From NCBI GenBank assembly GCA_046050355.1, contig JBJOPW010000004.1:5800-69799 (forward strand): DNA of 64,000 nt, written 5' to 3'. Source of the DNA: Candidatus Parcubacteria bacterium. Lineage in GTDB: Bacteria; Patescibacteriota; Minisyncoccia; Phycocordibacterales; UBA918. A model generated the notes under the pieces. That model did not search any database and had not been told where the DNA came from. It worked only from the letters and a program-made list of their open reading frames with translations. The position numbers and the translations under genes were made by a program. This document shows, one piece after another, positions 11,515 through 32,548 of the stretch (position 1 is its first letter; every line of letters begins with the position of its first letter).

Positions 11515-11907
11515 GATCCCGCCTCCCACTGTGGAGGCGGTTTTCGCAATGGCATGTCCGAGACGTCAAGACCCTGAACGTGAAAGAGCACGGCCATGAG
11601 TTCGTCTTCACGAATAGACTGTGACCAGTGCTCAGCCGGTTCTTGTCGCTGTCTAGCCAAACGAGCGGGAATTTCGATATCCTGATACTCGGAACGATAG
11701 AAGGTAGCCTTGGCGTTCGTAGCAAGGTCGGACTGGCGTCAGCCGGAAGGGTGGCAACCCTTCCGGGGTGAAGCGCTGGTACGAGGCCTTGTCGACGACC
11801 GATCACCAAGGCCACCAAACATGCTGAACCGGCACATTGCGCCTTCTAGGTGCTGAGGGAGCATCGACATACACTGCTTGTATTATCAGCAGTAAGTCAC
11901 AAACCAA

Positions 11908-13530: not shown

Positions 13531-13890
13531 ATGCGAATTTCGATCTCTCACCATGATGTCCGTAAGGGACTATTGTTCAGGAAGACTATGCACGAAGTCC
13601 ACTTGTCGGTGGCCTTCACCCACGAAGAAAAGCAGATTGTGCGCCAGCGCCGTCTAGGGGATCAGGTCATCCTGCAGCGCCGTCCGGCGAACGCCAAAGT
13701 TGATGATCGCGACAGTAAGTTCGTCCTGCGACTAGGTGACCTGCTTGACGGTCGTACCGACCGCTTTCTCCTCGCAACACCATCTGCAGCAAAAATCTAC
13801 GAGGAAGACCTGATCCGAATGTTGGCCCAAGTGAAGCTTTGGATTTCAGACAATGCAGAGACCGCAGGTCGGACGGTGATTGAACTTTGA
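13531..13890 (+). CDS. Hypothetical protein
   Basis: 119 aa; its stop overlaps the start of the next gene. Confidence 0.3.
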   Translation: MRISISHHDVRKGLLFRKTMHEVHLSVAFTHEEKQIVRQRRLGDQVILQRRPANAKVDDRDSKFVLRLGDLLDGRTDRFLLATPSAAKIYEEDLIRMLAQVKLWISDNAETAGRTVIEL

Positions 13891-15971
13891 GCACAGAACG
13901 CGAGATCAAGGAGTTCTTCAACTCGACGCTCGGATTGGGCGTCCTTTTTGTTTTCCTCCTCCTCGGCGTGGTAGTTGCACCGATATTCCTCATAGGGGCA
14001 GCGGTCTATGTAGTGGGTCGCCTTTATCTTGAAAACCCCGCCAGACTGGAGCGGGTAGCGAGACGAGAGACAGAGATCCTATACAATCACGCGCTCGCCG
14101 GGCAAGTTATCTTGAGCCGTGATGATATTGATGAAATCTTGTCAGCTAGCTGGCCGGAAGAATTGCCATTTCCAACGCGTGCACAGCTGCTTGATCTTGG
14201 CTATGAGCTTTTCCGAGACGAGGGACTTAGTCCAGACATTCCACCAGTTCCGGCACTTTGCAACACGGTGGAAGGGGCAAGATACCGCGACCTGCTTGCG
14301 AGACTAGGACAAGCGCGAACGGATCGTGTGATGGTTACCGCCGCTCTTTCGCAAATTGGAGAAAGTCTTTCGGTCGTCGCGCGGGCAATTCCAAACCTTG
14401 ATGGAGATGTACTTGTTTCTGTCTCTCAGTTCTTGGAACCGGTTGGTCCGACCATCGAAGAGATCATTGCGCCCTTTTATAGGGAGACTGGCTATATCCA
14501 TTTCAAGGCTCTGAGGGAACGCCTCGATCAGAACTTGGAACGGACCCATCGGACAAACCCGGTCTTTCCCCGCGACTACAAGGGTACTGATGCGGTTGAA
14601 ACCTACTTGGCTGGTACCCGGCTCAAAGCTCTCTTCAGCATCAAGACGCCCTTTGAGATCCCCGAAGCTTCACGCTTCGAGCATGTGCACATGGTTGCGG
14701 GAACCGGTCACGGGAAGACTCAGACGCTCCAATACTTCATCGCTAAAGACCTCCTCGACGTCGCGCGGCGTGACAAGTCCATTGTCGTCATTGACAGTCA
14801 GGGCGACCTGATCAGAACGATCCTCGCAGCCAAGCACCTTCCCCCCGAGCGCATCGTCTTGATCGATCCGGAGGACATTGCGTTCCCGGTAGCTCTCAAC
14901 TTGTTTTCGGTCGGCCAAGAACGTCTCACGGGCTACAGCGCGGTCGATCAGGAACGGCTCACCAACTCGATCCTGGAGCTCTATGACTTCGTGCTGGGGT
15001 CACTCCTTGGGTCGGGGATGACGTCGAAGCAGAACGTCATCTTCCGCTATGTCACCAGGCTCATGCTTCATATACCGGACGCTACGATCCACACCCTTCG
15101 GGAGCTCATGGAGCCTGGAGGGACGGTGAAGTATCAAGACGCTATCGACCGGCTGGATGGAACCGCGCGCAAGTTTTTCGCCAGCGAGTTTGACGGCAAG
15201 GAGTTCACGAACACAAAAGCGCAGGTCCTACGTCGCCTCTATGGTGTGCTGGAGAACCGTACCTTCGAACGGATGTTCTCGCACCCAACTTCACGCTTCG
15301 ACATGTTCACCGAGATGAACGCGGGGAAGCTCATTCTGATCAACACGGCGAAATCTCTGCTGAAAGAACAAGGCACGGAGATCTTCGGCCGCTTCTTCAT
15401 CGCCCTGATCGCTCAGGCCGCGCAAGAACGTGCCACCCTGCCAGAGTACGACCGGCTCCCGTGTATGGTTTTCGTGGATGAGGCCCAGGACTACTTCGAC
15501 GAAAACATCGGGATCATCCTCAGTCAGGCACGCAAGTATCGGGTCGGCATGACACTGGCACACCAATATCTTGGACAACTGTCTTCCTCGCTTCAGGAGG
15601 GCGTTGAGGCGAACACGGCAGTCAAACTTGCAGGCGGTGTCTCGGCTCGGGACTCCCGTGCTCTTGCAGGACAAATGGGGGCTGACCCCGACATGATCGC
15701 CCGACAGCCAAAGGGAACGTTTGCTGCCTTTATCCGTGGCGTCACAGAGAAAGCAGTCCCGATCTCGTTCCCGTTCTTTGTCCTAGAGAAATCAGAGAAG
15801 ACGACAGACCAAGAGCGGGCCGAAATCCGGACTTTCAGCCGCAATGCCTATGCGCACGCCTGGGATCGTCCCGAAGAAGACCAACAGCCGACGGAAGCGA
15901 ACAGCGACATTCCTTCCGGAGGTTCAAGAGACGACCGCATAGACCCACTTTCTCCTTCCACAGAGCTATGA
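13887..15971 (+). CDS. Type IV coupling protein (VirD4/TraG/TraD family) with an N-terminal membrane anchor
   Basis: N-terminal TM helices, Walker A VAGTGHGKTQ, Walker B MVFVDEAQDYFD, and TLAHQYLGQL. Confidence 0.7.
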   Translation: MSTEREIKEFFNSTLGLGVLFVFLLLGVVVAPIFLIGAAVYVVGRLYLENPARLERVARRETEILYNHALAGQVILSRDDIDEILSASWPEELPFPTRAQLLDLGYELFRDEGLSPDIPPVPALCNTVEGARYRDLLARLGQARTDRVMVTAALSQIGESLSVVARAIPNLDGDVLVSVSQFLEPVGPTIEEIIAPFYRETGYIHFKALRERLDQNLERTHRTNPVFPRDYKGTDAVETYLAGTRLKALFSIKTPFEIPEASRFEHVHMVAGTGHGKTQTLQYFIAKDLLDVARRDKSIVVIDSQGDLIRTILAAKHLPPERIVLIDPEDIAFPVALNLFSVGQERLTGYSAVDQERLTNSILELYDFVLGSLLGSGMTSKQNVIFRYVTRLMLHIPDATIHTLRELMEPGGTVKYQDAIDRLDGTARKFFASEFDGKEFTNTKAQVLRRLYGVLENRTFERMFSHPTSRFDMFTEMNAGKLILINTAKSLLKEQGTEIFGRFFIALIAQAAQERATLPEYDRLPCMVFVDEAQDYFDENIGIILSQARKYRVGMTLAHQYLGQLSSSLQEGVEANTAVKLAGGVSARDSRALAGQMGADPDMIARQPKGTFAAFIRGVTEKAVPISFPFFVLEKSEKTTDQERAEIRTFSRNAYAHAWDRPEEDQQPTEANSDIPSGGSRDDRIDPLSPSTEL

Positions 15972-15989: not shown

Positions 15990-16871
15990 ATGGGAAAGCT
16001 GGATGCTCTCGGTCGCGCAACATTCCATCACATAGCTGAACAATCAGCTGTGCGGGTGACGAATCGCGAGCTTGCTTGGCTCGCGCACATCCATCGACAT
16101 GGCCCCCAGTCGTCCACAGCGCTGTATGATTTGACGGTTTCCACGCACCGCTGCCGCGACACTAGTCTCCGCGCCCTTCAGCGGCTTCGTGCTGGCGGTG
16201 TCCTTTCACTCCCTCGCCAACAGCGCATGACCGAAAGAGCGGAGTTCAATCCGTACATTTACGATGTCACTGAGTTGGGCAAAGGCCACTTGGAAAATCG
16301 CGATCTGCTTGAACCCACTCTCCGCCCAAGTGGGCATTGGTGGCACGCTTACGGTGTCGGTGCGATCACAGCCGCCATCGAGCGCCGCGGTGCCGAGAAA
16401 GGCATTCGCTACATACCGCCTCAGTCAATCTTGGCGCGGGCAAGATGCGAACTTCCGCTACCCACACCTGCTGGCATGGTCATTCCGGATCAGCTATTCG
16501 CCTTGGACTACGGCGGCACCTTCAGAGCCTTTATGCTGGAGCATGACCGTGGGTCTGAACCGCTGTCTTCAAAGGCAGCACGTGAAAGCCTGGAACGAAA
16601 ACTTCATCGATACTCGACGGCTGCATCCAGCGATTTGCATCGTCGGCACTATGGCCTGAAGTCGCCGCTTGTCTTGATGTTCACCTTTGCGTCACGAGCG
16701 CGAGCCGCGCGGTTCTTAGACCTTGTCACCACGAAGTACCCGGTACTGTCTTCCATCGTCATCTTCGCCATTCTGAACGACGATGATCCACTGCTTCTGT
16801 GTTCTCGGGACATTGTCTTGGGTCCCTGGCAACGCGGGTCCGGTGGAACTTTCGAGCTATTCCAATCCTAG
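15990..16871 (+). CDS. Replication-relaxation family protein (putative)
   Basis: 293 aa with an N-terminal wHTH-like region; similarity recalled from the Replic_Relax family. Moderate. Confidence 0.4.
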   Translation: MGKLDALGRATFHHIAEQSAVRVTNRELAWLAHIHRHGPQSSTALYDLTVSTHRCRDTSLRALQRLRAGGVLSLPRQQRMTERAEFNPYIYDVTELGKGHLENRDLLEPTLRPSGHWWHAYGVGAITAAIERRGAEKGIRYIPPQSILARARCELPLPTPAGMVIPDQLFALDYGGTFRAFMLEHDRGSEPLSSKAARESLERKLHRYSTAASSDLHRRHYGLKSPLVLMFTFASRARAARFLDLVTTKYPVLSSIVIFAILNDDDPLLLCSRDIVLGPWQRGSGGTFELFQS

Positions 16872-17025
16872 GCCTAACTGGGGAACTTCGCCCAAGCAGA
16901 AGTTCCACTGTCTAGGGCAGGATGCGGCACGACCGTATTCTGAGCCTGGACCGTTCCTTATCAGAGCTATGCCGCAAGGCCTGCTCACTAGGCATGTGTC
17001 CTTTCCCAGAAACGTGGAGATACCC

Positions 17026-17739
17026 ATGACCCTTATGCTGCACACTGGCGGCGAAGCCATCGACTTCGATGACCTTCGTCTGCTTCCAACACCAGAACCA
17101 ACGGCGAGCCATGTCCCGATACCGCACCACTCGGTGGTGGATATGGTCCGCTACGCGCTCGGCTTCTTCGGTCACGAACTGCTCGAAGAGCATCATGCCG
17201 TCACACCCGACGGGATGAACTACTTCGGCGTCCTGTCTCTGCGGTCGCCATATGGTGACTACACCGACATGGTAGGCCTCAGGAACAGCCACAAAAAGCA
17301 GTTTCCAATTGGCATCGCCATCGGAAGCAGGGTGTTCGTCTGCGACAACCTAGCCTTCCATGCTGACCATGTGATCCGACGAAAGCACACGGCGAACGCC
17401 AAACGAGATCTTCCTGGCCTCGTCAGTGAAGTGATCGAGCCGTTGCATTTGGCACGGCGCGACCAAGCGCAGAGAATTGAAAGATACAAAGCCTTGGCGC
17501 TACCCGATGCACTGGCTGATCAAGCCATCATGGCCATGTACCGTCGCGGGGTGATCAACTTGACCCGCATCGGCGACGTTCTGACGATCTACGAGGAGCC
17601 ACCGCATGATTGGGGTGACAAGACGCCATGGCGACTCTTCAATGCTGCGACGTTCGCCTTAATGGGCAAGGTGGCAGAAAATCCCACCCATACCAAACGT
17701 CTACACGATGTAATTGATGGGATATGTGCAAAGGCATGA
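17026..17739 (+). CDS. DUF932-family protein (ICE/plasmid-associated)
   Basis: GGAG ribosome-binding site before the ATG at 17026. Motifs recalled from DUF932. The longer ORF starting at 16783 overlaps the upstream gene. Confidence 0.5.
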   Translation: MTLMLHTGGEAIDFDDLRLLPTPEPTASHVPIPHHSVVDMVRYALGFFGHELLEEHHAVTPDGMNYFGVLSLRSPYGDYTDMVGLRNSHKKQFPIGIAIGSRVFVCDNLAFHADHVIRRKHTANAKRDLPGLVSEVIEPLHLARRDQAQRIERYKALALPDALADQAIMAMYRRGVINLTRIGDVLTIYEEPPHDWGDKTPWRLFNAATFALMGKVAENPTHTKRLHDVIDGICAKA

Positions 17740-17771
17740 AGGAAAAGGACGGCTCTTGAGCCGTCCTTATT

Positions 17772-20765
17772 CTAGACGTGCTTCATAACTACATCGACAG
17801 AGGTGGCTTTAATGAAGCGAGCCGGGTTCGGTTCAGTGGCAATGGCCTGGAAATGCTTCTCGCCGCATTTGATTTTAGCGCCCTCATGGTGGCGTAGATC
17901 ATCCCACCAGCCGCTGCTCTTCGTTTCGACAACGAAATAGAGCTTTTCCTCGCCGTCCTGGTCGATGAGCACCGCCCAGTCGGGGTTGTAGGTGCCGAGC
18001 GGGGTCGGAACTTTGAACCATGCGGGCAGCTTGGCGTAGACTTTCACGGCCTCGTTGGCTTCAAGGTCTTCAGCGAAGGACTTCTCAGTGCCCTCGGAAT
18101 CGTAGACCACGTACTCGAAGACCGACTTTTGCGCCGGGATGGCGTTCTTGAGGTAGGTTTTCAGCTCTTCCTGCTCGAACAGCTCCTGGCAGTAGTAGTC
18201 ATCGTCGCCAATGCGGCGGTACTTGATACCGTCCACCAGGGCGAGGCGCTTGGTGCGGTTGATGGCTTCGGCGGCCTGGTCAATAAACTGCTGCGGGTTG
18301 CGCTTGAAGTCCTCGATGCGGTCGCTCTTGAGCAAAATATCGACAATGCTGCCGCGCGTGAGCTGGGTCTTGTCCTGAAGCTCGGTGATGATGTCCGGCA
18401 GCTCGATGTCATCTTCATTTATCGTGGTGTAGGCGCTCTTGGCCCCGTCTTCCTTCGTCGAAACACCGCCCTTGCCGATTTCCAGTCCAGCCTTGCGGAA
18501 GCGCGCGCGGGTCTTGGTTATCGGTTCGGAATTGCGGATGTTCTCCGCGCAGTCCTCGATCAGTTTGGCGTTATCGAATTCCACCCGGTAGGTGGTCTTG
18601 TGCTTGATGCGCTCCCAAAGGGCCTTGAACTCGGGGCTTTGCAAGATGGCCTCGCGGGTCTTGATGACCTTGCGGTCGTCGGCGTTCTTGATGTCGAGGC
18701 GACCGGCGAGCTTCTTGAGGATGGCGCTGATCTCGCCAGCCTGGGCGGTGAACTCTTCGGGTAGCGCAAGGGTGCCAGCCTTGAGGGCCGTGCGCAGGCT
18801 GTCCTGAACCCGTCCCTTGGCGTCAATCAGCTCTGCGGCCTTGAGATGCTCCCAAAGCTTCTCGGAAGCAGTCGCGCCAAGCGGCTTAGCTTCGCCATCT
18901 TCCGACTGCACCATGATCGCAGCGAACTGATGCGGTTCGACGACGCCGAACTTGATGCCGGTATCCTGCTCGATCTCGCTCTGGAGGTTCTTGGCGAAAT
19001 CCTCGTAGCTTTCCGTGGCAATCACGGTGAGCGTGTTGACTTCGTGGCCCCGCAAGCGTTGGCCGCTCTGGTCAACACAAAGGCGAAGCCCGCGACCGAT
19101 GGTCTGCCGACGCTCGCGCTCGGTTCCCATGTCGCGCAGGGTGCAAATCTGGAAGACATTGGGGTTGTCCCAACCTTCGCGGAGCGCGGAGTGCGAGAAG
19201 ATGAACTTCAGCTTCGTGTCGAAGCTGAGCAGCTTCTCCTTTTCCTTCATAATCAGGTTGTAGGCCCGCTCGGCGTTGTCGCGGTTGGACTGGTTGTTTT
19301 CTGCCGTGTCCGTCCAGCCCCCCTTCTTGTCGATGGAGAAATAGCCGTTGTGTAGCTCTTCGGCGTCCTGACCGGGGTCGATCTGGGCGAACAGCGTATT
19401 GTAGGCCGGGCTCTTGGCGAGCTTCTTGTATTCCTCTTCGAACATGACAGCATACTTGCCCTTGTGGGCGTTTCCGGCTTCGTCGTACTGGCGGTAGTGC
19501 TCGACGCTGTCGATGAAGAAGAGGCTGAGCACCTTGATCGGGCGGCCTGTCTCTTTGAAGCGAAGCTCCTTGTCGAGGTGCTCCTTGATGGTGCGGCGGA
19601 TCATGAGCCGTTTTTGCTCATCAGGATCGACACCACCGTAGGACATGCCAGGCTTAAGTACCTTGTCTAGGCCAGGTCCCTGAAGCTCGATAGTTTGCTC
19701 GGGGCCAACGGTGATTGTTGCGATCTGCATGTTCTCGTAGAGGGAACGGTTGGTGAGCTGCTCCAGGTCGTCACCATCCTCGACGGTCACAATCTTGCGC
19801 TTCACATCCTTGCCGCTGGCGATGTCGAGCTCGACCTTGGCGGTGATGGAGCCTTGCCTATTGTGCGTCGAAAGCAGCTTCACGTAAGGCTTGTTGTGGC
19901 CGCCCTCTATCTCAAGCGAAGCAACCTCGATTTGCTTCACTAGGCCGCGCTCGTAGGCGTCCACGGCATCGAGCCGGTAGACCATGTGGTGCTTTTGCAA
20001 GTGAGTGGCTGAATAGCGAAGGGTACAAAGCGCGTTCATATCCTTTAGTGCCTGTCGCCCTGCACCTTGCAGACCGCCATCGACGCTTTGAGGCTCATCG
20101 ACGACAATGATGGGGTTGGTCGCCTTAATCAGGTCAATAGGCTTTTCCCCGCCTGTGTTCTCGCTTTCCCGATAGATAACATTCGTCTGGCGGGACAGAG
20201 CCTGAATGGTGGACACCATTATCTGAATAGTCGAGCTTGTAGCGAAATTGCGAACCTGCCCAAGCTTCGATGATTCATAGAGGAAATACTCGTAGCCCTT
20301 GGCCTTGGGGTAGAGGTTCTCGAAGTGGTCGCGGGTGATCTCCAGCGTCTTGTAGACGCCTTCTTTGATGGCGACAGACGGCACCACGATGACGAACTTC
20401 GTGAAGCCGTACTCGCGATTAAGCTCGAAAATCGTCCTGAGATAAACGTAGGTCTTCCCGGTTCCCGTCTCCATCTCGACGGTGAAGTCGCCGGATTGCA
20501 GCAGCTTGTCCTGGGCCAGGCCATTGCGTAGCTGCACCTCTGCCAGGTTATCCAGCAATTCTTCATCGATCAGCTGAAGCCGATTGCCCACGCCAAGATC
20601 ACTCTCGATAAGCCCAAGCGTGGCCTGAGACCCGGTCTGCGGACGGTAGGTCACGGTGAACTCTGAACGGGACACTTCCTGCCCCTTGAACAGCTCAACA
20701 ACCGATGCAATCGCCGCTTGCTGGTAATCAAGGTTGTCTTCGAAATGTAGTTTCATTGCAGGCAT
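17772..20765 (-). CDS. res: Type III restriction-modification Res subunit (helicase-nuclease)
   Basis: 997 aa. Helicase motif I is METGTGKTY and motif II is VVDEPQ. Located directly downstream of Mod. Confidence 0.85.
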   Translation of the reverse strand: MPAMKLHFEDNLDYQQAAIASVVELFKGQEVSRSEFTVTYRPQTGSQATLGLIESDLGVGNRLQLIDEELLDNLAEVQLRNGLAQDKLLQSGDFTVEMETGTGKTYVYLRTIFELNREYGFTKFVIVVPSVAIKEGVYKTLEITRDHFENLYPKAKGYEYFLYESSKLGQVRNFATSSTIQIMVSTIQALSRQTNVIYRESENTGGEKPIDLIKATNPIIVVDEPQSVDGGLQGAGRQALKDMNALCTLRYSATHLQKHHMVYRLDAVDAYERGLVKQIEVASLEIEGGHNKPYVKLLSTHNRQGSITAKVELDIASGKDVKRKIVTVEDGDDLEQLTNRSLYENMQIATITVGPEQTIELQGPGLDKVLKPGMSYGGVDPDEQKRLMIRRTIKEHLDKELRFKETGRPIKVLSLFFIDSVEHYRQYDEAGNAHKGKYAVMFEEEYKKLAKSPAYNTLFAQIDPGQDAEELHNGYFSIDKKGGWTDTAENNQSNRDNAERAYNLIMKEKEKLLSFDTKLKFIFSHSALREGWDNPNVFQICTLRDMGTERERRQTIGRGLRLCVDQSGQRLRGHEVNTLTVIATESYEDFAKNLQSEIEQDTGIKFGVVEPHQFAAIMVQSEDGEAKPLGATASEKLWEHLKAAELIDAKGRVQDSLRTALKAGTLALPEEFTAQAGEISAILKKLAGRLDIKNADDRKVIKTREAILQSPEFKALWERIKHKTTYRVEFDNAKLIEDCAENIRNSEPITKTRARFRKAGLEIGKGGVSTKEDGAKSAYTTINEDDIELPDIITELQDKTQLTRGSIVDILLKSDRIEDFKRNPQQFIDQAAEAINRTKRLALVDGIKYRRIGDDDYYCQELFEQEELKTYLKNAIPAQKSVFEYVVYDSEGTEKSFAEDLEANEAVKVYAKLPAWFKVPTPLGTYNPDWAVLIDQDGEEKLYFVVETKSSGWWDDLRHHEGAKIKCGEKHFQAIATEPNPARFIKATSVDVVMKHV

Positions 20766-20776
20766 ACTCGATCAGG

Positions 20777-22639
20777 TTACAGGCTGCGAACGTGGCTGAT
20801 GCCGTTCTGCTCAAGGATGGCCACCATGTTGGTCTTGGCGATGTCATCGGCGAAGGCACTGTCCCGGAAGAAGACATGGGAGTCAGTCTCAGGCTCGAGC
20901 TCCCTGTGCCAATCCAGAATACCTTGAGCGAGACTGTCCACGAGGGTTGCTTCAACTGAGGTATCAAGACATGCGAATAGCACGCCATAACCGACGCTGT
21001 AGACTGATTTTCCGGCAACTTTCCGTTCTTCTATTGGGGCAGTCAGCTCTATTCCACGCTTCAACAAAAGTTCGCATAGTATATCTGCTTCGGACCGACC
21101 TTCAACAAGGTGATCCTTATTTAGAAGCAAGGCTCCCTCCATATCATTGCGATCTGGGGTCCAGGCTTTGATACCAGATCGATTCAGCTGGAAATAGCGA
21201 AAGCCTAGATCCTTCACCTTTCCTTGCATTGTTTTTCCAGCTCTCCTAATTCTTTCAGCCGACAGCTTTGCTATGTTTTCGTATCCGGCAGCTCCAGCTA
21301 CAGAACTTTTGTCAATTTCCTCTGGCAACTGAATCTGGATAAACCTACGCGTCCCGCCATCTTCTGCATTGGCGGAGAGGACAGCATGGGCCGTGGTCGA
21401 AGAGCCGGCAAAAAAATCTATAATCAGATCATCTTTGCTGTCACTCTGTGACAACTGAATCATCCGACGAATCAATCTTGTGGGCTTGGGATTGTCGAAC
21501 ATTCCGGCCATTCCTAAGGCCTTCAATTCACTATTGGATTCGTGATTATGGCCGACTTCGTCATATGGCCACAATGTCGTTGGCGTAACCCCATCTTTTA
21601 TTTCGCTCAGAAAGCTTTTTCTTGATGGAGTCTGGTCTCCTTTTTCTCCAAACCAAATCTCATCACCTTCATCCATCATTTTCATAGATGCATCATTGAA
21701 ACGTCGATAGGTTCCAGCAGGTGGGGTCCATGTGACCCCATTTTTGAAGGTGTAGCTCGAGTTATTTGTTCCACTCTTGGCGTGCAAAGGCGTTGCCTTC
21801 CACGGTCCTTTGGGGTGACCATCTGGGTTCTTATAGGCACTTACTTGGTCTTCCGTGCGAGGAAGTTGATTTAGGACAAAACTATCTTTGTTTTTGGCGT
21901 AGCATAGGACATGATCATGATTTGATGAAAACCACTTAGCGTCGTTGGCGCGAGTGTATTTCTTTTGCCAAACGACATTAGCAATGAAGTTCTCTTCGCC
22001 AAATATTTCATCACAAATTTTTCGCAGGTTCGCCTGTTCCGTGTCATCTATTGTAACGAAAATTACGCCCTCATCGGATAGTAGGGTTCTTGCGAGGCGG
22101 ATTCTGGGATACATCATATTCAACCAATTGGTGTGTAATCTCCCGCCCGTTTCCATATTGGATGAAAATTTCATTCCATCCGAGGCAATCTGGCCGGTAT
22201 ACTTAAGGTAGGTCTCAAGATTGTCTTGGAATCTGTCGGGATAGATGAATTCATTCCCAGTGTTATAGGGCGGATCGATAAAAATCATTCTAGCTTTTCC
22301 TGCATAACTTTTTTGCAGGAGCTTCAGCGATTCAAGGTTATCCCCCTCAATAAAAACATTCCGAGTTGTGGCCCAATCGACACTTTCATCCTTTCGCGGT
22401 ACGAGCGTCCCTGTGCTTGGCGTGAGAGCAATTTGTCGCGCTTGCTTCTTGCCATGCCAGGTTAGGCCATACTTTTCCTCACCCTCATCTAGCACTTTTG
22501 CATCGCCAAGCAGCTGGCGAAGAACGTCAATATTCATCCCGCCTTCGGTGAAAGCGTCGGGAAACAGCGCCTTTAGCTTGGCAATGTTCTCGGCGATGAT
22601 GTTGGCGCTCTGGCCGTCTTCGTGGGTGACTTTTTTCAT
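20777..22639 (-). CDS. mod: Type III restriction-modification Mod subunit (N6-adenine DNA methyltransferase)
   Basis: Catalytic motif IV is IFIDPPYNTGNEFIY (DPPY). 620 aa. Confidence 0.85.
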   Translation of the reverse strand: MKKVTHEDGQSANIIAENIAKLKALFPDAFTEGGMNIDVLRQLLGDAKVLDEGEEKYGLTWHGKKQARQIALTPSTGTLVPRKDESVDWATTRNVFIEGDNLESLKLLQKSYAGKARMIFIDPPYNTGNEFIYPDRFQDNLETYLKYTGQIASDGMKFSSNMETGGRLHTNWLNMMYPRIRLARTLLSDEGVIFVTIDDTEQANLRKICDEIFGEENFIANVVWQKKYTRANDAKWFSSNHDHVLCYAKNKDSFVLNQLPRTEDQVSAYKNPDGHPKGPWKATPLHAKSGTNNSSYTFKNGVTWTPPAGTYRRFNDASMKMMDEGDEIWFGEKGDQTPSRKSFLSEIKDGVTPTTLWPYDEVGHNHESNSELKALGMAGMFDNPKPTRLIRRMIQLSQSDSKDDLIIDFFAGSSTTAHAVLSANAEDGGTRRFIQIQLPEEIDKSSVAGAAGYENIAKLSAERIRRAGKTMQGKVKDLGFRYFQLNRSGIKAWTPDRNDMEGALLLNKDHLVEGRSEADILCELLLKRGIELTAPIEERKVAGKSVYSVGYGVLFACLDTSVEATLVDSLAQGILDWHRELEPETDSHVFFRDSAFADDIAKTNMVAILEQNGISHVRSL

Positions 22640-22655
22640 GGTCTTCTTCTTGAAT

Positions 22656-23420
22656 TTAGTTGCTAAAGTTCAGGCGAGCTTCGAGCTTGAGTATAGCATC
22701 TTTTCGTTCCCTGATCATGCTGTTCAGGGTGATCTTGCTTCCCATCTGGTGCTCGCGATTCAGCGTGGTCCGGAGCTCAGCAATCTCGCGTTCCAGTTTG
22801 TGAATCTCCCCGAGAATGACAGTGTGTTCCTTGGATGCCGAGATCGAGGCCGAAACGAACGTCCCGGTCCTGTCCGAGGTGATCAGCCCGATGACCTGGC
22901 TCTGGAATGCTTCATAGAGGGCATAAAAGTTGGTGGCGGGAAGCCGGTGAAGCTGAATGGCCTCCAGGAAGGCCGCCTGTGATGTCGAAGGCTTGTTCGG
23001 ATCGATCCATTCGGTCTGCCAACGATCCACCAACACGAGCTTGGACTTGTCGGCCTGGTTGATCCGCTTTTCCGCAACACTGATGGCGATCTTGCCCGCG
23101 TGCTCGAACGCCAGGATCAGCGGATATGGAATGGCCCGGTGCATGAAGGCTGCGACGCGATTGAGGCGAGCAGGATTCGACAGCTCGACCGAAAGGACGG
23201 CGATCTCCAGGTATTCTCGCTCGCTGTCCTGGAAGGGTGCGATGTTGATGGTGTCGGGCTTGAGCGTGTATTGCCAGCGGATGCGCCCGACATCCTCGCT
23301 CAGCGCCTTCCTGTCGGTCTGGTCTAGCTCTGCGTGATCGAGGAACATCTTCTTGTAGACCGGCTTGTCGAGCAAGCAGGCTTCAGGGATGCCAAGGCTG
23401 GAGAGGAAGGCGTCGATCAT
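22656..23420 (-). CDS. DUF4391-domain protein
   Basis: 254 aa. Sits between the SNF2 helicase and Mod in the same operon, a recurrent DUF4391 neighbourhood. Its start overlaps the helicase stop. Confidence 0.55.
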   Translation of the reverse strand: MIDAFLSSLGIPEACLLDKPVYKKMFLDHAELDQTDRKALSEDVGRIRWQYTLKPDTINIAPFQDSEREYLEIAVLSVELSNPARLNRVAAFMHRAIPYPLILAFEHAGKIAISVAEKRINQADKSKLVLVDRWQTEWIDPNKPSTSQAAFLEAIQLHRLPATNFYALYEAFQSQVIGLITSDRTGTFVSASISASKEHTVILGEIHKLEREIAELRTTLNREHQMGSKITLNSMIRERKDAILKLEARLNFSN

Positions 23421-26400
23421 GCTGCGGCTTGGATAACGAGGAAGCTCACAACCTCAAAATCGTCTCCGCCCTTGAGGTGATCTTTGGTGAGCGCCGTACC
23501 GCCACGGGAAAAGAGGCTCTCGACGCCCTTTTCTTCAGTCTTGCCGACGACGCTCTCTATGGCGCGATCCAGCAGCTCTCGATAGGCGCTCATATCGCGC
23601 CCGTTCTTGGTTTTGGTGTTAAGGGCGTCGATGCTGGCGCGGTCTAGCTCAGTCGCAGACGCGGCGAGCTTCTTGTATACGTCCAGGCTCTTTTTGGCCT
23701 GAAGGTGATTGAACACGATGGTGCCCGCCTCGGAGACATAGATGAGGTAGAATGGCGTGAGCGCGTAGCTGTCTTCGTTCTGCACCTTACCCTTAAGGTC
23801 GCGCAGGCAGAAGATCACGCCTGGCACGGCTTGGTCAATGTTGGGCGACACAACCGCGTGAAAGCCGGTTGGTGAGCCTTCCAGGCGCTTCAGGTTTTCC
23901 TTCATGAAGCTGGACAAATCCATGCGGAAGTCGTTCAGCGTCATGTCGGTGATGGAGACGCTGCCATCCATGTCCTCAAGATCGATGACGGCATCTTGGA
24001 GCTGCTGCATTTGTTTGCGACGGTATTCCAGATCGTTCATCTGCTTGTTTTCGTCATATTCGATGACGTTCTCTTCGCCGGTCGCGGAGATGTCCAAGAG
24101 CACCATGCGACCGCTCACGCGGGCTTCGAGGTTGATATACTCGTCGAGCTGCATGTTAGGCCAGAAATTGGTGAGCTGGATCGCGGCGTTCTTCGATCCT
24201 AAGCGGTCCACGCGCCCGAAGCGCTGGATGATCCGCACCGGGTTCCAGTGGATGTCGTAATTGACTAGCATGTCGCAGTCCTGAAGGTTCTGGCCTTCCG
24301 AAATGCAGTCCGTGGCGATCAGGATGTCGATGTCAGTCGTGGCATCGGGGTCGATCTTGTCGCGCTCTTTTGAAACCGGCGAAAAATTAGTCAGGATGCT
24401 GTTGAGGTCGCGCGGCAAGCCGTCGATGGTGCAGCGGTTGGTTCCACTACCCGTCACGAGCGCGCTGTGGAGGCCAAATTCCTTCAGCGCCCAGGTGTGT
24501 ATGTGCTTGAAAAGATATTCAGCCGTGTCGGAGAAGGCGGTGAAAACGATGACCTTGTTGTTGCCAGGGTTGATCGGCGTTTTGAGCTTGGCGGCAATGG
24601 TGTCCTTCAGCTTTTGGAGCTTGGCATCGTCCGCAGCCGCAATCTTCCGCGCCTCGTCGAGCAGGTAGCCTAAAAGGATGTGATCGGCTTCGAGGTCCTG
24701 ACGCATCCGGATGAGGTCCAGGTCCTGGATCAGCACCTTGACCTTTCGGCCAATCATAAGGTCTTCGAGTTCGGGAGAATCTGCCTCGATGTCCTCGATG
24801 AGCAATTCCTCGATTTCCGTAGCCTCATGAGCATCGATCTTCGCGAGGAAGTTGCCGACCTGAGCATGAATCTTCTCGACGGTGAGAGCGAAGGAATGGA
24901 TCGAGCTCTCCATCCGCTTAAGCATGTTGACGCGCATGAGGTGGATCAGGCTGCGCTCCCGGTCCACCTGCTTGAGCGTCGATTTCCCACCTTTGACTTG
25001 TTGGTCGTACTTGCGGCTGTAATCGTCCTGCTTGTCGGCGCGCACATAATCCAGGGGCGCGTAGGCCGCCAGAGAAAGCTTCTTGATTGAGCGGTTGATG
25101 TCCTTGAGCGGCGGGAACCGGCCATCCTTGTCGATGTCCGACTTCACATTCTGCGGCTTCAGACGCTCGGGGAATTTCCCGATTTCCGCAGTGTCGTAAT
25201 ACTTCTCGATATGCCGCCGCGACCGCGCGATGGTAAGCAGGTCGAGTAGCTTGAAATAGCCGAAGTTAAGGCTTTCGAGCAGCCCTTCGGTGGTGCGGCT
25301 TTCAGCCGGTAGCTTCAGCCAGGTGTTGAACTGCGTCTGCGCGCGACGGAGTGTAACTTCTATGCTTTGAATGCCCGCATCGGCTAGCGCTTTGTCCTGC
25401 CCTTCGGTGATGAAGGCGACCTGGTTCTTCAGGTCATTCAGGCGATTGTTCACCGGGGTGGCGGAGAGCATCAGGACTTTGGTTTTGACGCCTTTCCGGA
25501 TTACCTCGTCCATCAGCCGCTGGTAGCGAGTGATCTTGTCTTTGCTCGGGTTGTTGTTTCGGAAATTGTGGGACTCGTCGATGACGATGAGGTCGTAGTT
25601 GCCCCAGTTGATCGTCTCCAGGTTAATCTCACCGGAGCGACCCGTCTCGCGGCTCAAGTCTGTGTGGTTCAGGACATCAAAGTTGAAGCGATCAGCCGCA
25701 AGCAAGTTGCGCTTGTCGTTGATCGTGTAGACAGTCCAGTTTTCTCGGAGCTTCTTGGGCGCGAGCACCAGAACGCGGTCATTGCGCAGTTCGTAGTATT
25801 TTATGACGGCCAGCGCCTCGAACGTCTTACCCAAACCGACGCTGTCGGCGATGATGCAACCGTTGTAACGCTCAAGCTTGTCGATAGCGCCGAGAACGCC
25901 GTCTTTCTGGAACTTGTAGAGCTTGTTCCAAACTAACGTGTCCTTAAAGCCAGTCTTCGACCGTATGATGCTTTCCTCATCGATTTCCTCGATGAAGTCC
26001 CTGAAGATATTGAACAGGGTGATGAAGTAGAGAAGGTTCGCAGGCTTATCGGAGGCGAGGAAATCAAGGCTTTCAAGCACCGCATCCTTTGCATTGCGAA
26101 CGGCAGTTGGATCATTCCAGATTGTCTCGAACCAGTTGAGCAACTGCTTCGTTGCCTCCGGGTCTTTCGCCACGGTGTTCATCGCAAAGCTGTTGGATCG
26201 CACAACGCCAAGACCAGCGGCTGTAAAGTCCGAAGTGCCAGCGACGGCAACCACTTCACCAAGGGGTGGTTGAATGTGAAAAATATTCTGCGCGATAGGC
26301 GCTCCTGCGAGCTGTCGGACCTGAGCCTTCTTTCGAACCCATTCCGCACACTCGGCGGCGATGCGCTGGAGGTTCAGCTCATTCTTCAGGCCAATCTCTT

Positions 26401-26668
26401 CAGTGGTCCCGGCTAGAGGCAGCGGGAGAGCGGCATCAGGTCGCGCCAAGAGAATGCGCAAGTCCTGAACCTTGTTGAGCTCTGACTTCAGGGCGGAATA
26501 ACCAAAAACGGAAAACCAGGCGGTCAAAACCAACATTTTCGAGTCTGGGCTCAAGGCCGCTCGAAGTTCGTCTACGACCTTGCCGTGGACCTTGTTATCT
26601 AGAAGCATGTGGACTTTTGCCTTGCCTGAAGAGTCGTCGTATGTGGTTGATTTTTTATGGGAATCCAT
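23417..26668 (-). CDS. SNF2-family helicase with an N-terminal PLD-like nuclease domain
   Basis: SNF2 motifs I (ADSVGLGKT), II (DLIVIDESHNFRN), and V/VI (QRFGRVDRLGS). The N-terminal ~250 aa are PLD-like. Start placed at 26668 from an internal ATG with an AAAGG ribosome-binding site. Confidence 0.75.
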   Translation of the reverse strand: MDSHKKSTTYDDSSGKAKVHMLLDNKVHGKVVDELRAALSPDSKMLVLTAWFSVFGYSALKSELNKVQDLRILLARPDAALPLPLAGTTEEIGLKNELNLQRIAAECAEWVRKKAQVRQLAGAPIAQNIFHIQPPLGEVVAVAGTSDFTAAGLGVVRSNSFAMNTVAKDPEATKQLLNWFETIWNDPTAVRNAKDAVLESLDFLASDKPANLLYFITLFNIFRDFIEEIDEESIIRSKTGFKDTLVWNKLYKFQKDGVLGAIDKLERYNGCIIADSVGLGKTFEALAVIKYYELRNDRVLVLAPKKLRENWTVYTINDKRNLLAADRFNFDVLNHTDLSRETGRSGEINLETINWGNYDLIVIDESHNFRNNNPSKDKITRYQRLMDEVIRKGVKTKVLMLSATPVNNRLNDLKNQVAFITEGQDKALADAGIQSIEVTLRRAQTQFNTWLKLPAESRTTEGLLESLNFGYFKLLDLLTIARSRRHIEKYYDTAEIGKFPERLKPQNVKSDIDKDGRFPPLKDINRSIKKLSLAAYAPLDYVRADKQDDYSRKYDQQVKGGKSTLKQVDRERSLIHLMRVNMLKRMESSIHSFALTVEKIHAQVGNFLAKIDAHEATEIEELLIEDIEADSPELEDLMIGRKVKVLIQDLDLIRMRQDLEADHILLGYLLDEARKIAAADDAKLQKLKDTIAAKLKTPINPGNNKVIVFTAFSDTAEYLFKHIHTWALKEFGLHSALVTGSGTNRCTIDGLPRDLNSILTNFSPVSKERDKIDPDATTDIDILIATDCISEGQNLQDCDMLVNYDIHWNPVRIIQRFGRVDRLGSKNAAIQLTNFWPNMQLDEYINLEARVSGRMVLLDISATGEENVIEYDENKQMNDLEYRRKQMQQLQDAVIDLEDMDGSVSITDMTLNDFRMDLSSFMKENLKRLEGSPTGFHAVVSPNIDQAVPGVIFCLRDLKGKVQNEDSYALTPFYLIYVSEAGTIVFNHLQAKKSLDVYKKLAASATELDRASIDALNTKTKNGRDMSAYRELLDRAIESVVGKTEEKGVESLFSRGGTALTKDHLKGGDDFEVVSFLVIQAAA

Positions 26669-26774: not shown

Positions 26775-26960
26775 TCAGGTCTCGCGGCGCGTGATCCGCT
26801 CTTGGAGCCATTCCAGCACTTCGCTTTCGACCCATCCGACCCGGTTCGGCCCGAGGTTTACCCGCTTGGGGAATGCTCCGACCTTTTCCAGCCTCGCGAC
26901 GTGTTGCGGCGAGTACAGGACCAACTCTTTGAGCTGGCGCTTTGAAAGTATCCTCATCAC
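26775..26960 (-). CDS. alpA: AlpA-family phage/island transcriptional regulator (Xis-like HTH)
   Basis: 61 aa; LSKRQLKELVLYSPQHVARLEKVGAFPKRVNLGPNRVGWVESEVLEWL is the AlpA motif. Confidence 0.7.
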   Translation of the reverse strand: MMRILSKRQLKELVLYSPQHVARLEKVGAFPKRVNLGPNRVGWVESEVLEWLQERITRRET

Positions 26961-27142
26961 GATCTCTCCATGGTGAAGAGCATCGCGATGCCCAGGGTTA
27001 CGACGTTCCTAGGTGTGAGGAGAGTAGTGCGAGATTAGTTGCCATGCCATAGAGTTGTGCCGCTCTTGATCCGTTCCTGCATGGCCAGTGTGCGCTTTGA
27101 TTGAACCGGGATAGGGTTTTCGATTAGACTCCTGCACATGAA

Positions 27143-27472
27143 ATGGAGGTACGAATGAGCAGTATTGACTTGAACGCTCTCGACTTGGCTGAACTCAAGC
27201 AGTTAGCCAAGGACGTGTCGAAGGCGATTTCGGGGTTTGAGGATCGGAAGAAGTCGGAGGCTCGGGCTGCGCTCGAAGCTCAAGCCAAAGAGCTTGGCTT
27301 CACGCTGAGCGAGCTACTCGGGACTGGTAGCGGAAAGACGCGCGCACCGACCGTCGCCAAGTACCGCCATCCCGAGAATGCTTCGATTACATGGTCTGGC
27401 CGTGGCCGTAAGCCGCACTGGTTTTCAGACGCGATCGCAAAAGGTGTCTCTCCCGAGTCGTTAGCGGTATAG
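27143..27472 (+). CDS. H-NS-family nucleoid-associated protein (xenogeneic silencer-like)
   Basis: N-terminal coiled coil. C-terminal TWSGRGRKPHWF is an H-NS DNA-binding motif. Confidence 0.7.
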   Translation: MEVRMSSIDLNALDLAELKQLAKDVSKAISGFEDRKKSEARAALEAQAKELGFTLSELLGTGSGKTRAPTVAKYRHPENASITWSGRGRKPHWFSDAIAKGVSPESLAV

Positions 27473-27800
27473 TCTCGTGGTGCGATCATACTCTCAGGCG
27501 CGGCCACGGCTGCGCTTGGGCCGCCTAGATCGTTGATCGACCGGAGGTGGTCTAGAAGGTGGACCGGATTCTCAGCGCTCTACAAAAGCTATATTTTTCA
27601 GTGCATTGGAAAATTTAGTGGTGCCCAGAGCCGGAATGGGATTGCCGGAACATTCCAACACATAGCCTTGCATTTTCAATTTCTTAGACCAAGTCGCGGC
27701 TCCAAGGGCAACACATCGCCGAACATCGCTGAACATACAATCACAACCCTTGAGGTGGACTAAAAGGTGGACTAGAAAAGGTGGACTGCGGGAGGATTCG

Positions 27801-28961
27801 ATGGTTCTCTTGAACAGCCTGAACCCACTGAAAGCAAAGAACCTAGTCGCAGGAAAGCACGCTGACGGCCAAGGACTTTGGCTAGTGAAGAGTGAGCGCA
27901 CTCGGGGAAAGTGGGTTCTCCGCGTTGTCGTCCAAGGAAAGCGTCGGGAAATGGGTTTGGGCCGGTGGCCTGACGTCTCCATTGCTGAAGCGCGTGAGTT
28001 GGCCGCGGAGGCGCGGAGGAAGCTCCGGACAGGCATCGATCCGATAGCTCAACGTGTTGAAGGCCGGAAGAAAGTCGTACGCCTAACGGTACAACAAGCA
28101 GTGGACGCGTGCTTCGAGGCACGAAAAGCAGAACTCAAGAGCGACGGCGAGGCGGGTCGCTGGATGTCTCCGCTCTCAGTCCACGTGCTGCCGGTGATTG
28201 GAAAGACTGCGATAGAGGACGTCGATCAACATGTGCTGAAGAAAGCTTTGGAGCCCATCTGGCACTCAAAGGCCGACACAGCTCGAAAAGCTCTAAACCG
28301 CCTCAGCTTGACCCTAAAGCATGCGGCTGCACTTGGACTGGAAGTAGACCTCCAGGCAACGATGAAGGTCCGGGCTCTCCTAGGCAAACAAAGGCACGTG
28401 TCCGAACACATTCCTTCGATGCCATACAAAGACGCACCGGCCTTCTATCGCTGGCTCTCCGAACAGACCTCGGCGGCAGCCCTACCGCTTCGCTTCCTCA
28501 TTTTGACAGCTGCCCGAACTGGAGAGGTGCGCTATGCTCGGCATAGCTACATTGAGGACAAAGTTCTTACACTCCCTCCCGAGATCACAAAGACCGGGCG
28601 TGAACACAAAATTCCGCTTACATCGGAAGCCGCAGCAGTGATCAACGCTGCGAAGCTGCAAGACAGCCAGGACCTGTTGTTCCCTTCCCCAACCGGAAAG
28701 ACCTTCTCTGATGCGACAATGTCACGATTAATGCAGCGTGAAGGCCTAGTTTATAGGCCCCATGGCTTCAGGGCCACATTCCGGACGTGGGTCGAAGAAC
28801 AAACTGACACTCCTCTCGAAGTGGCTGAGGCCGCACTCGGGCACGTCGTAGAGGGACAGGTCATCCGGGCCTACCAACGATCTGATCGACTTGAGAAACG
28901 ACGATCCTTGCTAGTCAAATGGAGCAAGTATCTGCAAGACACAGGACACCCCAACCCATAG
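27801..28961 (+). CDS. int: Tyrosine site-specific integrase (P4-like phage integrase family)
   Basis: GGGAGGA ribosome-binding site before the ATG at 27801. The C-terminal catalytic region HGFRATFRTW ... LGHV ... RAYQR has the R..HxxR..Y signature. Confidence 0.85.
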   Translation: MVLLNSLNPLKAKNLVAGKHADGQGLWLVKSERTRGKWVLRVVVQGKRREMGLGRWPDVSIAEARELAAEARRKLRTGIDPIAQRVEGRKKVVRLTVQQAVDACFEARKAELKSDGEAGRWMSPLSVHVLPVIGKTAIEDVDQHVLKKALEPIWHSKADTARKALNRLSLTLKHAAALGLEVDLQATMKVRALLGKQRHVSEHIPSMPYKDAPAFYRWLSEQTSAAALPLRFLILTAARTGEVRYARHSYIEDKVLTLPPEITKTGREHKIPLTSEAAAVINAAKLQDSQDLLFPSPTGKTFSDATMSRLMQREGLVYRPHGFRATFRTWVEEQTDTPLEVAEAALGHVVEGQVIRAYQRSDRLEKRRSLLVKWSKYLQDTGHPNP

Positions 28962-28976
28962 CAACCAAAAATACGG

Positions 28977-29738
28977 TCAAAGCCTGATTATTGTATCCTG
29001 AACCTGCAGAGCGCTCATCGCCGAGCAGAACTCAGTCAAGCCAAAGTCTCGATTAAATCGGTCATTAGACTCATGAACCAAAAGCGTCTTCGCCGCGAAG
29101 ACAGCGCCCGAATCACGTGCGAGTACTATAGCTCTCAAGTACTTCCGGTCCAAATCTCCAGAAATGCTACCAGACACAACCCGAAGATAACTGGTGTCTG
29201 CTCCTACAACATAGACACGATCTGCCTGGCAAAAGTAATAACCCTGATGATCGGGGTCAACGCTTTTCCGAGCAACTTGGAATGGAGAAACGTCATCATC
29301 ACCGATCGATCTGTAAGCGTCAAAGAACTTATCGAAGTTCTTGCGCTTAATGAAATTCATGAACCGGAATAGACCACAGTACTCAAAGAAAATTAACCCT
29401 CCAGAAACTAAGTCCCCAAACCCATCCGACCGGTAATAACGAAATGCACCAAGCAGAGTCCGTGCCTGCTGAATAGACTGACTATCTATCCCCAGACTCT
29501 CGCTAAGCGCTGAGTACGTTCTAAATTGCCTGTTTGGAACTCTCAAACACACGTCAACTTTTGCAAGAGACGAAAGTTCAACTTCTTCCCCCCTATAGAT
29601 TTTTTCAAGTGTCGCAATGTCTGGCGCACGCGAGCCAAAGACCTTCTTGAACGCCCGAGCAGTCTTGAAGCCGTCCGCTACCGCTCTAGCCAAAACTTCA
29701 TCACCGACCAACGTTCGAGCGCCTGACTTCAACACCAC
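28977..29738 (-). CDS. Hypothetical protein (orphan gene in an AT-richer patch)
   Basis: 253 aa; no recognised motif. Local GC is lower than the surrounding element. Confidence 0.4.
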   Translation of the reverse strand: MVLKSGARTLVGDEVLARAVADGFKTARAFKKVFGSRAPDIATLEKIYRGEEVELSSLAKVDVCLRVPNRQFRTYSALSESLGIDSQSIQQARTLLGAFRYYRSDGFGDLVSGGLIFFEYCGLFRFMNFIKRKNFDKFFDAYRSIGDDDVSPFQVARKSVDPDHQGYYFCQADRVYVVGADTSYLRVVSGSISGDLDRKYLRAIVLARDSGAVFAAKTLLVHESNDRFNRDFGLTEFCSAMSALQVQDTIIRL

Positions 29739-29943
29739 TACCCACTCCCGAATCTAACGATTCCTCATCAAATCGCAAGATTCTCATACCAGTCCCGGCA
29801 CTGCAAGATCAAGTCGCACGAGCGAGGTAACGATCCCAACAAACAACTGAAAATCGGTGTTTTACCAGTGACTCGTAGGCGTGCGACCATGGAGCCGCAG
29901 ATGAGAGCAACTGATCTGCGCGAACGTAGACGGGAGGAACAGA

Positions 29944-31272: not shown

Positions 31273-31282
31273 AACTTAGAGA

Positions 31283-32433: not shown

Positions 32434-32548
32434 ATTTCGATGCTACTTGGACCGGATCCCGATCTTTTATCTGGGTGTCCGGCATCTAGTGTCTTAGTCA
32501 AGGCAATGAGAATTCATTGAAGTGAGGAAGTTTGAGAAGTGTTTCGAA

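Follow-up and report, generated by a model that had tools for sequence, protein, structure and literature searches.

A four-gene SNF2–DUF4391–Mod–Res cassette as a candidate motor-assisted variant of type III restriction–modification

Type III restriction–modification enzymes, which hemimethylate short asymmetric sites, are the textbook example of restriction through one-dimensional diffusion, triggered by ATP, from site to site between two sites; their modification subunits (Mod), where characterised, methylate on their own, and in the classical systems the rule that two inverted sites are required protects newly replicated host DNA. Class 1 DISARM, a second methylation-based defence, combines the SNF2 helicase DrmD and the methylase DrmMI with DrmA, DrmB and DrmC. 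Deletion of drmD together with drmMI nearly abolished its protection against one phage (bioRxiv 10.1101/2021.12.28.474362). A third, MANTIS (formerly Gao_RL; BREX-related type 2), comprises an AAA+ DUF499 protein (MtsA), a DUF3870 protein (MtsB), a methyltransferase (MtsC) and a PLD-helicase (MtsD), requires two ATPases together with the methyltransferase, needs the ATPase and its small partner (MtsA/MtsB) for methylation and follows a logic that its authors liken to that of type III systems (bioRxiv 10.64898/2026.09.23.753747). Here we describe a locus with features of each of these systems, at positions 17772–26668 of a 64,000-nt stretch of DNA recorded under Candidatus Parcubacteria (contig JBJOPW010000004.1; hereafter the window, with all coordinates counted over its whole length from its first letter as position 1), in which a type III mod–res pair is preceded by genes for an SNF2-family ATPase and a DUF4391 protein. 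We read these genes as a conserved, co-transcribed four-gene defence cassette, specifically a variant of type III restriction–modification that resembles DISARM, has two ATPases and includes a dedicated SNF2–DUF4391 accessory module, and give this reading about an even chance of being right.

The open reading frames (ORFs) show four tightly packed genes, all on the minus strand, in the order SNF2, DUF4391, Mod, Res. The first (23417–26668) encodes a 1083-aa SNF2-family ATPase when read from the ATG at 26668, within an ORF that extends to a GTG at 26761, and includes a catalytically degenerate N-terminal PLD-like domain (26024–26608, minus strand; approximately residues 21–215) and an SNF2 ATPase core with both RecA-like lobes (24197–25906, minus strand; Pfam coordinates converted to the 1083-aa numbering). 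It is followed by the genes for the DUF4391 protein (22656–23420; 254 aa), for the type III Mod, a predicted N6-adenine DNA methyltransferase (20777–22639; 620 aa), and for the type III Res, a predicted SF2 ATPase with a C-terminal PD-(D/E)xK endonuclease domain (17772–20765; 997 aa). The SNF2 start is ambiguous between ATG 26668 and ATG 26608: most homologues are approximately 1063 aa long and start at an MLLDN motif that corresponds to ATG 26608, and the 20-residue extension from ATG 26668 is common to a few close relatives. The initial annotation had proposed a four-gene arrangement with overlapping or near-abutting junctions, and the junctions bear this out: SNF2 and DUF4391 share a 4-nt ATGA overlap (DUF4391 ATG at 23420–23418 over the SNF2 stop at 23419–23417), DUF4391 and Mod are 16 nt apart, and Mod and Res are 11 nt apart. 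A scan with promoter and terminator consensus sequences gave no signals within the operon above the level of shuffled sequence. A terminator-like hairpin, read from the sequence (17745–17768, minus strand; a 10-bp G+C-rich stem with the loop CAAG, then TTTT), begins 3 nt beyond the Res stop and is the probable end of the operon, common to a convergent ORF at 16783–17739; the consensus scan missed it because its T run is short.

The downstream pair shares the strand of the SNF2 and DUF4391 genes, follows them closely and, as the initial annotation had it, consists of a type III Mod with a DPPY motif and a Res. Mod matches the PADLOC model MTase_III (2e-208) and the solved type III Mods 6K0W (9e-81) and EcoP15I Mod (2.6e-57), and Res matches PADLOC REase_III over its full length (E = 0; 1271 bits) as well as the Pfam families ResIII and RE_endonuc (1.7e-36) and is homologous to EcoP15I Res (3.9e-64). 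Across alignments of 64–75 relatives, conservation reached at least 90% both for the Mod motifs IDPPYNTG and DFFxGS (also given as DFFAGS), which cover DPPY and the AdoMet-binding motif, and for the Res motifs GTGKT, DEPQ, GWDNPN, GRGLR and NPDWA...FVVExK, which include Walker A and B, motif VI and the PD...ExK nuclease motif, and the middle region of Mod, presumably the target-recognition domain, was variable. Mod and Res retain the full set of motifs required for methylation, ATP hydrolysis and DNA cleavage. With the NCBIfam model of the classical family, Res scored 390 bits against a cutoff of 564 bits and therefore belongs to a separate clade.

The protein encoded upstream is, to judge from its motifs and profile matches, a genuine SNF2-family ATPase with an intact ATPase core. 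It matches the Pfam families SNF2-rel_dom (8.6e-12) and Helicase_C (2.5e-13), and also ResIII; its closest solved relatives are RapA, ISWI and Snf2; and helicase motifs I, II, III, V and VI are present, with GLGKT, DESH, SAT and QRFGRxDR at least 90% conserved among 75 aligned relatives. Conservation in the family alignment is highest in the ATPase core and lowest in the N-terminal domain. The best PADLOC match is C3a139, labelled 'HKD+Snf2' (1.7e-137). Matches to DrmD are partial (PADLOC DrmD, 5e-40; NCBIfam DrmD, 165 bits against a 610-bit cutoff), and the protein is a predicted relative of DrmD but not an equivalog. C3a139 (PADLOC PDLC01075) was listed only as a protein cluster, observed in 4 genomes in the vicinity of type III CRISPR-cas cassettes, in a survey of candidate accessory proteins (Shah et al. 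2019).

One element of the initial annotation, the label 'nuclease-helicase' for the SNF2 protein, found no support: the N-terminal domain is only weakly PLD-like, and the HKD motif was not found anywhere in the family. On the window protein itself the PLDc_2 match lies under the Pfam threshold (E = 0.049; 13.9 bits versus a 27-bit cutoff). In one-by-one scans of the first 230 residues of 34 diverse relatives from the family, PLDc_2 was matched at E ≤ 0.1 in 17 (best, 2e-6), and some close homologues carry a precomputed PF13091 match; judged by sequence profiles, the domain therefore probably belongs, in diverged form, to the PLD-like superfamily. The alignment of this domain, when used as a profile against PDB sequences, returned nothing meaningful. 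The catalytic signature HxK(x)4D...GSxN, placed by hand on the family alignment, was not found in any of the 75 sequences: a near-invariant glutamine (Q127; 72 of the 75) occupies the expected position of the catalytic histidine, hydrophobic residues stand where the lysine is expected, and the aspartate and asparagine positions are variable. It was likewise absent from five distant plasmid versions (Acinetobacter, Citrobacter, Photobacterium, Methanomethylovorans and Enterococcus faecium). We conclude that the N-domain is not a phosphodiesterase, so that the C-terminal PD-(D/E)xK domain of Res is the only predicted nuclease of the cassette. An SNF2 protein that served as a second restriction effector beside Res, as an active PLD nuclease-helicase, would fit the weak PLDc_2 similarity and the 'HKD+Snf2' label of the best PADLOC model, and PLD-helicase effectors do exist (for example, MtsD of MANTIS, and PbeA); but with the HKD histidine, lysine, aspartate and asparagine missing or unconserved in all 75 members and the five plasmid versions, and with the N-domain as the least conserved part of the protein, we consider this role highly improbable, and an active PLD nuclease was rejected on motif grounds.

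The second gene encodes a member of the DUF4391 family (PF14335; 5e-63, 213.5 bits against a 29.9-bit gathering cutoff, profile positions 1–229 of 232). The initial annotation had described the family as being of no known function, and that description stands: neither PADLOC nor NCBIfam holds a model that matches the protein, and in the full-text literature that we searched (subscription journals lie outside it) 'DUF4391' occurred only in two papers without relevance, once in a gene-content table and once as an apparent misprint for DUF7941, and 'PF14335' did not occur. An AlphaFold model built from an 18-sequence alignment was confident (pLDDT 91, pTM 0.89) and shows an alpha/beta domain (residues 1–160) followed by three long helices. 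Foldseek comparison of this model with the PDB gave a best E value of 0.035 with TM scores below 0.2, and the DUF4391 alignment, searched as a profile against PDB sequences, found nothing meaningful; as modelled, the protein thus seems to be without a convincing solved structural relative. The family is large, with 2,103 clusters at E ≤ 0.001 in a profile search of 1.84 billion representative proteins (approximately 2,100 clusters at 50% identity), and all but two of the 150 best matches were stand-alone proteins of at most about 310 aa.

Whether the four genes belong together was assessed from gene neighbourhoods in a sample of approximately 90 DUF4391-seeded and 80 Res-seeded loci. The genome scan for DUF4391 (one genome per species, with two conserved peptide motifs as the seed) yielded 80 loci, which came from Alpha- and Gammaproteobacteria, Bacteroidota, Ignavibacteriales, Cloacimonadota, Spirochaetia, Planctomycetota, Chloroflexota and Hydrogenedentota and were annotated with the four window proteins. 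Every one of these loci with sufficient intact DNA carried SNF2, DUF4391, Mod and Res on one strand in the same order, the exceptions being contig ends, one decayed locus (L062) and one in which no SNF2 ORF was detected (L006). A tblastn search of plasmids, which is free of motif bias, located DUF4391 in 52 records and agrees with the genome scan. Eleven annotated plasmid or phage records showed the same order; records with the cassette include those of Acinetobacter sp. NEB149, Citrobacter, Photobacterium, the archaeon Methanomethylovorans hollandica, E. faecium, Phaeobacter, Aeromonas media and Lactococcus lactis, together with Bacillus cereus (reached through a Res match) and a 90-kb record named Erysipelothrix phage phi1605.

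The dependence runs one way. In no locus with sufficient flank did SNF2–DUF4391 lack a Mod–Res pair downstream of it, co-oriented and in the usual order, and within the gene neighbourhood SNF2–DUF4391 is strictly dependent on Mod–Res. From the side of the nuclease, a Res-seeded scan of metagenomic contigs, annotated with family hidden Markov models (HMMs), returned 80 loci with 39–95% identity to the window Res, of which the 29 with at least 4 kb upstream of Mod were counted: 19 held the full cassette, 5 a DrmD-type SNF2 without DUF4391, and 5 Mod–Res alone, such that an SNF2 motor lay upstream in 24 of the 29. The window Res clade is thus usually preceded by an SNF2 motor. True stand-alone Mod–Res relatives exist, for example on Thiodictyon pTs485; the Aeromonas hydrophila plasmid pK533-strA (L082, 6169–12006), an apparent stand-alone pair, proved to be the truncated remnant of a longer operon, in which Mod lacks its first 95 aa and IS630 lies directly upstream. 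The initial annotation had allowed that SNF2 and DUF4391 might prove dispensable and unlinked in homologous loci, and had called for a search for existing PADLOC models; in essentially every locus examined the two genes were linked to Mod–Res, no PADLOC model matched DUF4391, and PADLOC-type HMM annotation labelled only Mod and Res.

Strict dependence on Mod–Res would also be expected if SNF2–DUF4391 were a back-up sensor that notices when a phage inhibits or evades type III restriction and then triggers a second response. Restriction systems paired with back-up modules are known, PrrC with EcoprrI being one example. No toxic or effector domain is detectable in SNF2 or DUF4391, however, and we regard such a sensor as very unlikely.

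Variant operons bear on the place of the SNF2 protein. On the B. cereus plasmid pMRY14-0057_1 (L094, 12724–26457; NZ_AP022875.1, 274723–288456), DrmA, a DUF1998 protein (DrmB), SNF2, DUF4391, Mod and Res are encoded in that order in one operon of six genes with overlaps and with no DrmC annotated, and approximately 18 B. cereus plasmids have Res matches at the same identity (41.2%). This hybrid operon ties the cassette directly to DISARM, with the SNF2 protein in the place of DrmD; the arrangement is rare, as phmmer searches with the B. cereus DrmA and DrmB found no counterpart in the other loci tested (~90). In a three-gene variant, a DrmD-type SNF2 of approximately 960 aa (PADLOC DrmD, 3e-205), without the N-terminal PLD-like domain, lies directly upstream of a same-clade Mod–Res without DUF4391, and the Mod and Res match the same PADLOC models as those of the window. 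This variant occurs in 5 of the 29 counted Res-seeded loci and in three loci with less flank, all on metagenomic contigs (for example, L152, 5177–13036; also L148, L157, L159, L169 and L174), with neither DrmA nor DrmB detected at these loci. Across the Res-seeded sample, DUF4391 and the PLD-like domain were either both present or both absent, which hints that they work together but could alternatively reflect two helicase lineages. Homology between the C-terminus of the DrmD-type helicase and DUF4391 was considered and rejected, the only match being one of 8 bits in a helical, probably coiled-coil part. Finally, a 1419-aa protein in which DUF4391 forms the C-terminus of a RecB-like nuclease (RNase_H_2) and SF1 helicase (AAA_11/12) is encoded on at least six contigs (among them L176, 4649–17344, and L177, both from JGI metagenomes), directly upstream of Mod–Res and with the PLD-like SNF2 gene adjacent and divergent; the latter protein is 53% identical to the window SNF2 over its full length. 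At least one lineage thus has DUF4391 and a helicase in a single polypeptide, with DUF4391 still next to Mod.

Sequence divergence resolves the cassette into two parts. Among 59 complete loci, Spearman correlations of pairwise-identity matrices were 0.88 for SNF2 and DUF4391 and 0.85 for Mod and Res, and 0.47–0.69 across the two pairs, indicating two co-evolving modules that are sometimes re-assorted. The SNF2 stop overlaps the DUF4391 start by 4 nt in 30 of 54 loci, and nearly all others have the two genes no more than 14 nt apart, an arrangement that argues for translational coupling and, by extension, for an SNF2–DUF4391 complex. Insertions of unrelated defence genes are frequent at the DUF4391–Mod and Mod–Res junctions but rare at the SNF2–DUF4391 junction.

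Modules that assort in this way might be nothing more than neighbours, namely a self-sufficient type III system and a separate SNF2–DUF4391 defence system that co-travel in defence islands. Such independence would suit the completeness of Mod and Res, the existence of close relatives that stand alone, the modest cross-module correlation and the frequency of unrelated insertions. Yet SNF2–DUF4391 was never seen without a downstream Mod–Res in loci with sufficient flank from many phyla and one archaeon; neither of its proteins contains a recognisable effector, since the PLD-like domain has lost its HKD residues; and a DrmD-type SNF2 takes the same position before the same Mod–Res clade. On balance we find independence improbable.

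The inserts, as judged from N-terminal sequences and annotated plasmid records, are varied, and other defence genes appear to use the cassette as a hot spot for insertion. A 567-aa DUF262/GmrSD-like gene was present in approximately ten loci; other inserts included RhuM- and Fic-like genes, a Gabija-like ATPase paired with a UvrD-like gene, an AAA ATPase with DUF4276, and a gene pair resembling a nucleotidyltransferase toxin–antitoxin. Eight loci had an insert between Mod and Res (L004, L020, L025, L033, L034, L036, L042 and L050), and further insert-bearing loci were L060 (6306–10003), L009, L045 and L089. Separately, in the Firmicutes versions a small helix-turn-helix gene lies directly upstream of SNF2 (L086, 5449–5649, in E. 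faecium; L175, 4478–4681, in Lactococcus lactis pUL021B) and may encode a controller protein of the cassette.

The division of labour that we propose for the conserved cassette is as follows. Mod would provide site recognition and self-marking, and Res would provide the only nuclease. SNF2 and DUF4391 would form a complex in which DUF4391 serves as an adaptor, possibly by docking on the dead PLD-like domain or by dimerising through its helical hairpin, and this complex would be a nuclease-free, ATP-driven translocase or remodeller of double-stranded DNA that acts on the same unmethylated target DNA as Mod2Res. The SNF2 motor would thereby take the role that DrmD is thought to have beside DrmMI in class 1 DISARM, and might act on cleavage (licensing or stimulating it), on access to sites (reaching or clearing them) or on methylation (controlling it during establishment). 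That the motor simply relaxes the two-inverted-site rule seems unlikely; in classical type III systems this rule guards newly replicated host DNA. A further-reaching version, which we hold to be doubtful, is that the cassette represents a widespread and so far unrecognised DISARM-related class of motor-assisted type III systems, in which DUF4391 would be a new-fold adaptor that tethers the motor to Mod2Res, so that cleavage would be licensed or driven, or methylation controlled, by a second ATPase.

Several observations weigh against the accessory-module reading. Same-clade Mod–Res pairs occur alone (in 5 of the 29 Res-seeded loci, and on Thiodictyon pTs485), so the pair probably suffices by itself, and basic restriction may not need the add-on. 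The weaker co-evolution across modules fits module swapping and speaks against very specific contacts between them. DUF4391 has no recognisable fold relative, which makes its role as an adaptor a guess, and the two-motif DUF4391 seed could miss very divergent DUF4391 genes in other contexts. All of the proposed functional coupling of SNF2–DUF4391 with Mod–Res is read from gene order.

The same accessory genes could instead form a control module, in which SNF2–DUF4391 loads or stimulates Mod, or restrains Res, such that a mobile element can establish without killing its new host, much as MtsA/MtsB load the methyltransferase in MANTIS. Such control would accord with the position of SNF2 and DUF4391 as the first genes of the operon, with the carriage of the cassette on plasmids, integrative elements and a phage-like element, and with the need for an ATPase and a small partner in MANTIS methylation (bioRxiv 10.64898/2026.09.23.753747). 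However, stand-alone Mod–Res relatives imply that methylation is generally independent of the add-on, and some versions of the cassette already have a potential controller in their upstream helix-turn-helix gene. The window Mod, moreover, keeps all of its motifs, and characterised type III Mods methylate alone. We consider a control module unlikely.

In the window, the cassette lies within a stretch of 53–58% G+C (approximately 7.5–29 kb) between flanks of 42–50% G+C. This island also encodes a serine recombinase, two HerA/TrwB-like ATPases, a DUF3768 protein, a Replic_Relax protein, an AlpA-family protein, an H-NS-like protein and a tyrosine integrase. The operon was initially placed just inside the integrase–AlpA end of the island, and the adjoining genes agree with this placement: an AlpA-family helix-turn-helix gene (26775–26960, minus strand; Pfam Phage_AlpA, 6e-11) lies 106 nt upstream of the SNF2 start, the tyrosine integrase gene (27750–28961) lies beside the operon, and between the two is an H-NS-like gene (27143–27472, plus strand; C-terminal domain, 6e-17), which could serve in xenogeneic silencing as a gene that the island itself carries. 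An AlpA homologue upstream of SNF2 was seen only in the closest relatives (L001, L002 and L005; weak match in L048); AlpA is therefore part of the element and not of the cassette, and was rejected as a core fifth gene. The P-loop ATPases (9606–10760, minus strand, and 13887–15971, plus strand) have weak matches to PADLOC 'mad8' of MADS (1.7e-21 and 8.9e-9, respectively) and, with the Replic_Relax gene (15990–16871), look more like island transfer genes than defence genes. No direct repeats of at least 13 bp between 1–12000 and 27000–34000 were found to mark the island ends. To the left of the island, a tRNA-Trp gene (6414–6485) is flanked by a type IV secretion pilin-domain gene (5245–6366, plus strand) and miaA (IPP transferase; 6527–7438, minus strand).

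The provenance of the island has two readings. An identical DUF4391 protein is recorded under a Candidatus Parcubacteria metagenome-assembled genome (MAG), whereas the operon's nearest relatives come from MAGs of Rhodobacteraceae and Sphingomonadales (identity to L001 is 95% for SNF2 and 93% for Res). Together with the G+C contrast of the island, this points either to recent horizontal transfer or to a mis-binned or chimeric contig. Near-identical DNA was not found in E. coli genomes.

If the proposed coupling of SNF2–DUF4391 to Mod–Res is correct, the many annotated type III systems with a dedicated SNF2 motor would work differently from EcoP15I; on the further-reaching version, most members of the window Res clade would not be the simple two-gene type III systems as which they are annotated. 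The DUF4391 family would gain a function, and the cassette, with just four genes, would provide a simple model for the part that SNF2 helicases such as DrmD play in methylation-based defences (DISARM, BREX-related systems and MANTIS). PADLOC-type annotation and recent surveys recognise only the M and R components, and cloning Mod–Res alone may therefore misreport activity; a recent study of the lactococcal defensome and methylome, for example, defines a type III system by a single M with a single R and mentions no SNF2 gene. On plasmids of E. faecium, Lactococcus lactis, Acinetobacter and Enterobacteriaceae, the cassette may matter for plasmid transfer and for the phage resistance of dairy starters.

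Among known systems, the cassette is like classical type III enzymes (EcoP15I and EcoP1I) in having mod upstream of res, DPPY and FxGxG-type motifs in Mod, and an SF2 ATPase with a PD-(D/E)xK nuclease in Res; unlike the classical two-gene systems, it has two further genes strictly linked upstream, with mod–res itself present and contiguous. The four-gene cassette was not described in the searched literature (subscription journals again lying outside it), in which C3a139 is the only naming of this helicase family, its link to DUF4391 and type III Mod–Res going undescribed there. With MANTIS it shares a set of four genes, methylation-based action, two ATPases and a small partner of unknown fold, but all protein families differ: no DUF499, DUF3870 or PLD-helicase with a catalytic histidine was matched, and the PLD domain of the cassette is predicted to be inactive and sits on a non-nuclease ATPase, the nuclease being the PD-(D/E)xK Res. 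Identity with Gao_RL/MANTIS was accordingly rejected, the protein families being those of a different system. With Hma (the Snf2-nuclease HmaA, the methylase HmaB and the DUF499 ATPase HmaC), it has in common an Snf2-type ATPase beside a methyltransferase and defence genes inserted in the operon, whereas HmaA has an active C-terminal PD-(D/E)xK nickase, and Hma is without a type III Res and without DUF4391. DISARM membership was rejected, as DrmA, DrmB and DrmC are absent from the window and from most relatives: none of the three is encoded among the neighbours in the window, in which phmmer searches with the B. cereus DrmA and DrmB also found nothing, and none turned up in the other loci tested (~90). 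The initial view that the operon resembles DISARM but differs from it is upheld, in that both place an SNF2-family ATPase beside an adenine methyltransferase in a methylation-based defence operon that also contains a PLD-type domain. They part in the methylase, which in the window is a type III Mod (PF01555), whereas DrmMI is reported as pfam13659 (bioRxiv 10.1101/2021.12.28.474362), and in the remaining components, the cassette having a type III Res, a DUF4391 protein and a PLD-like domain that is fused to the SNF2 protein and degenerate.

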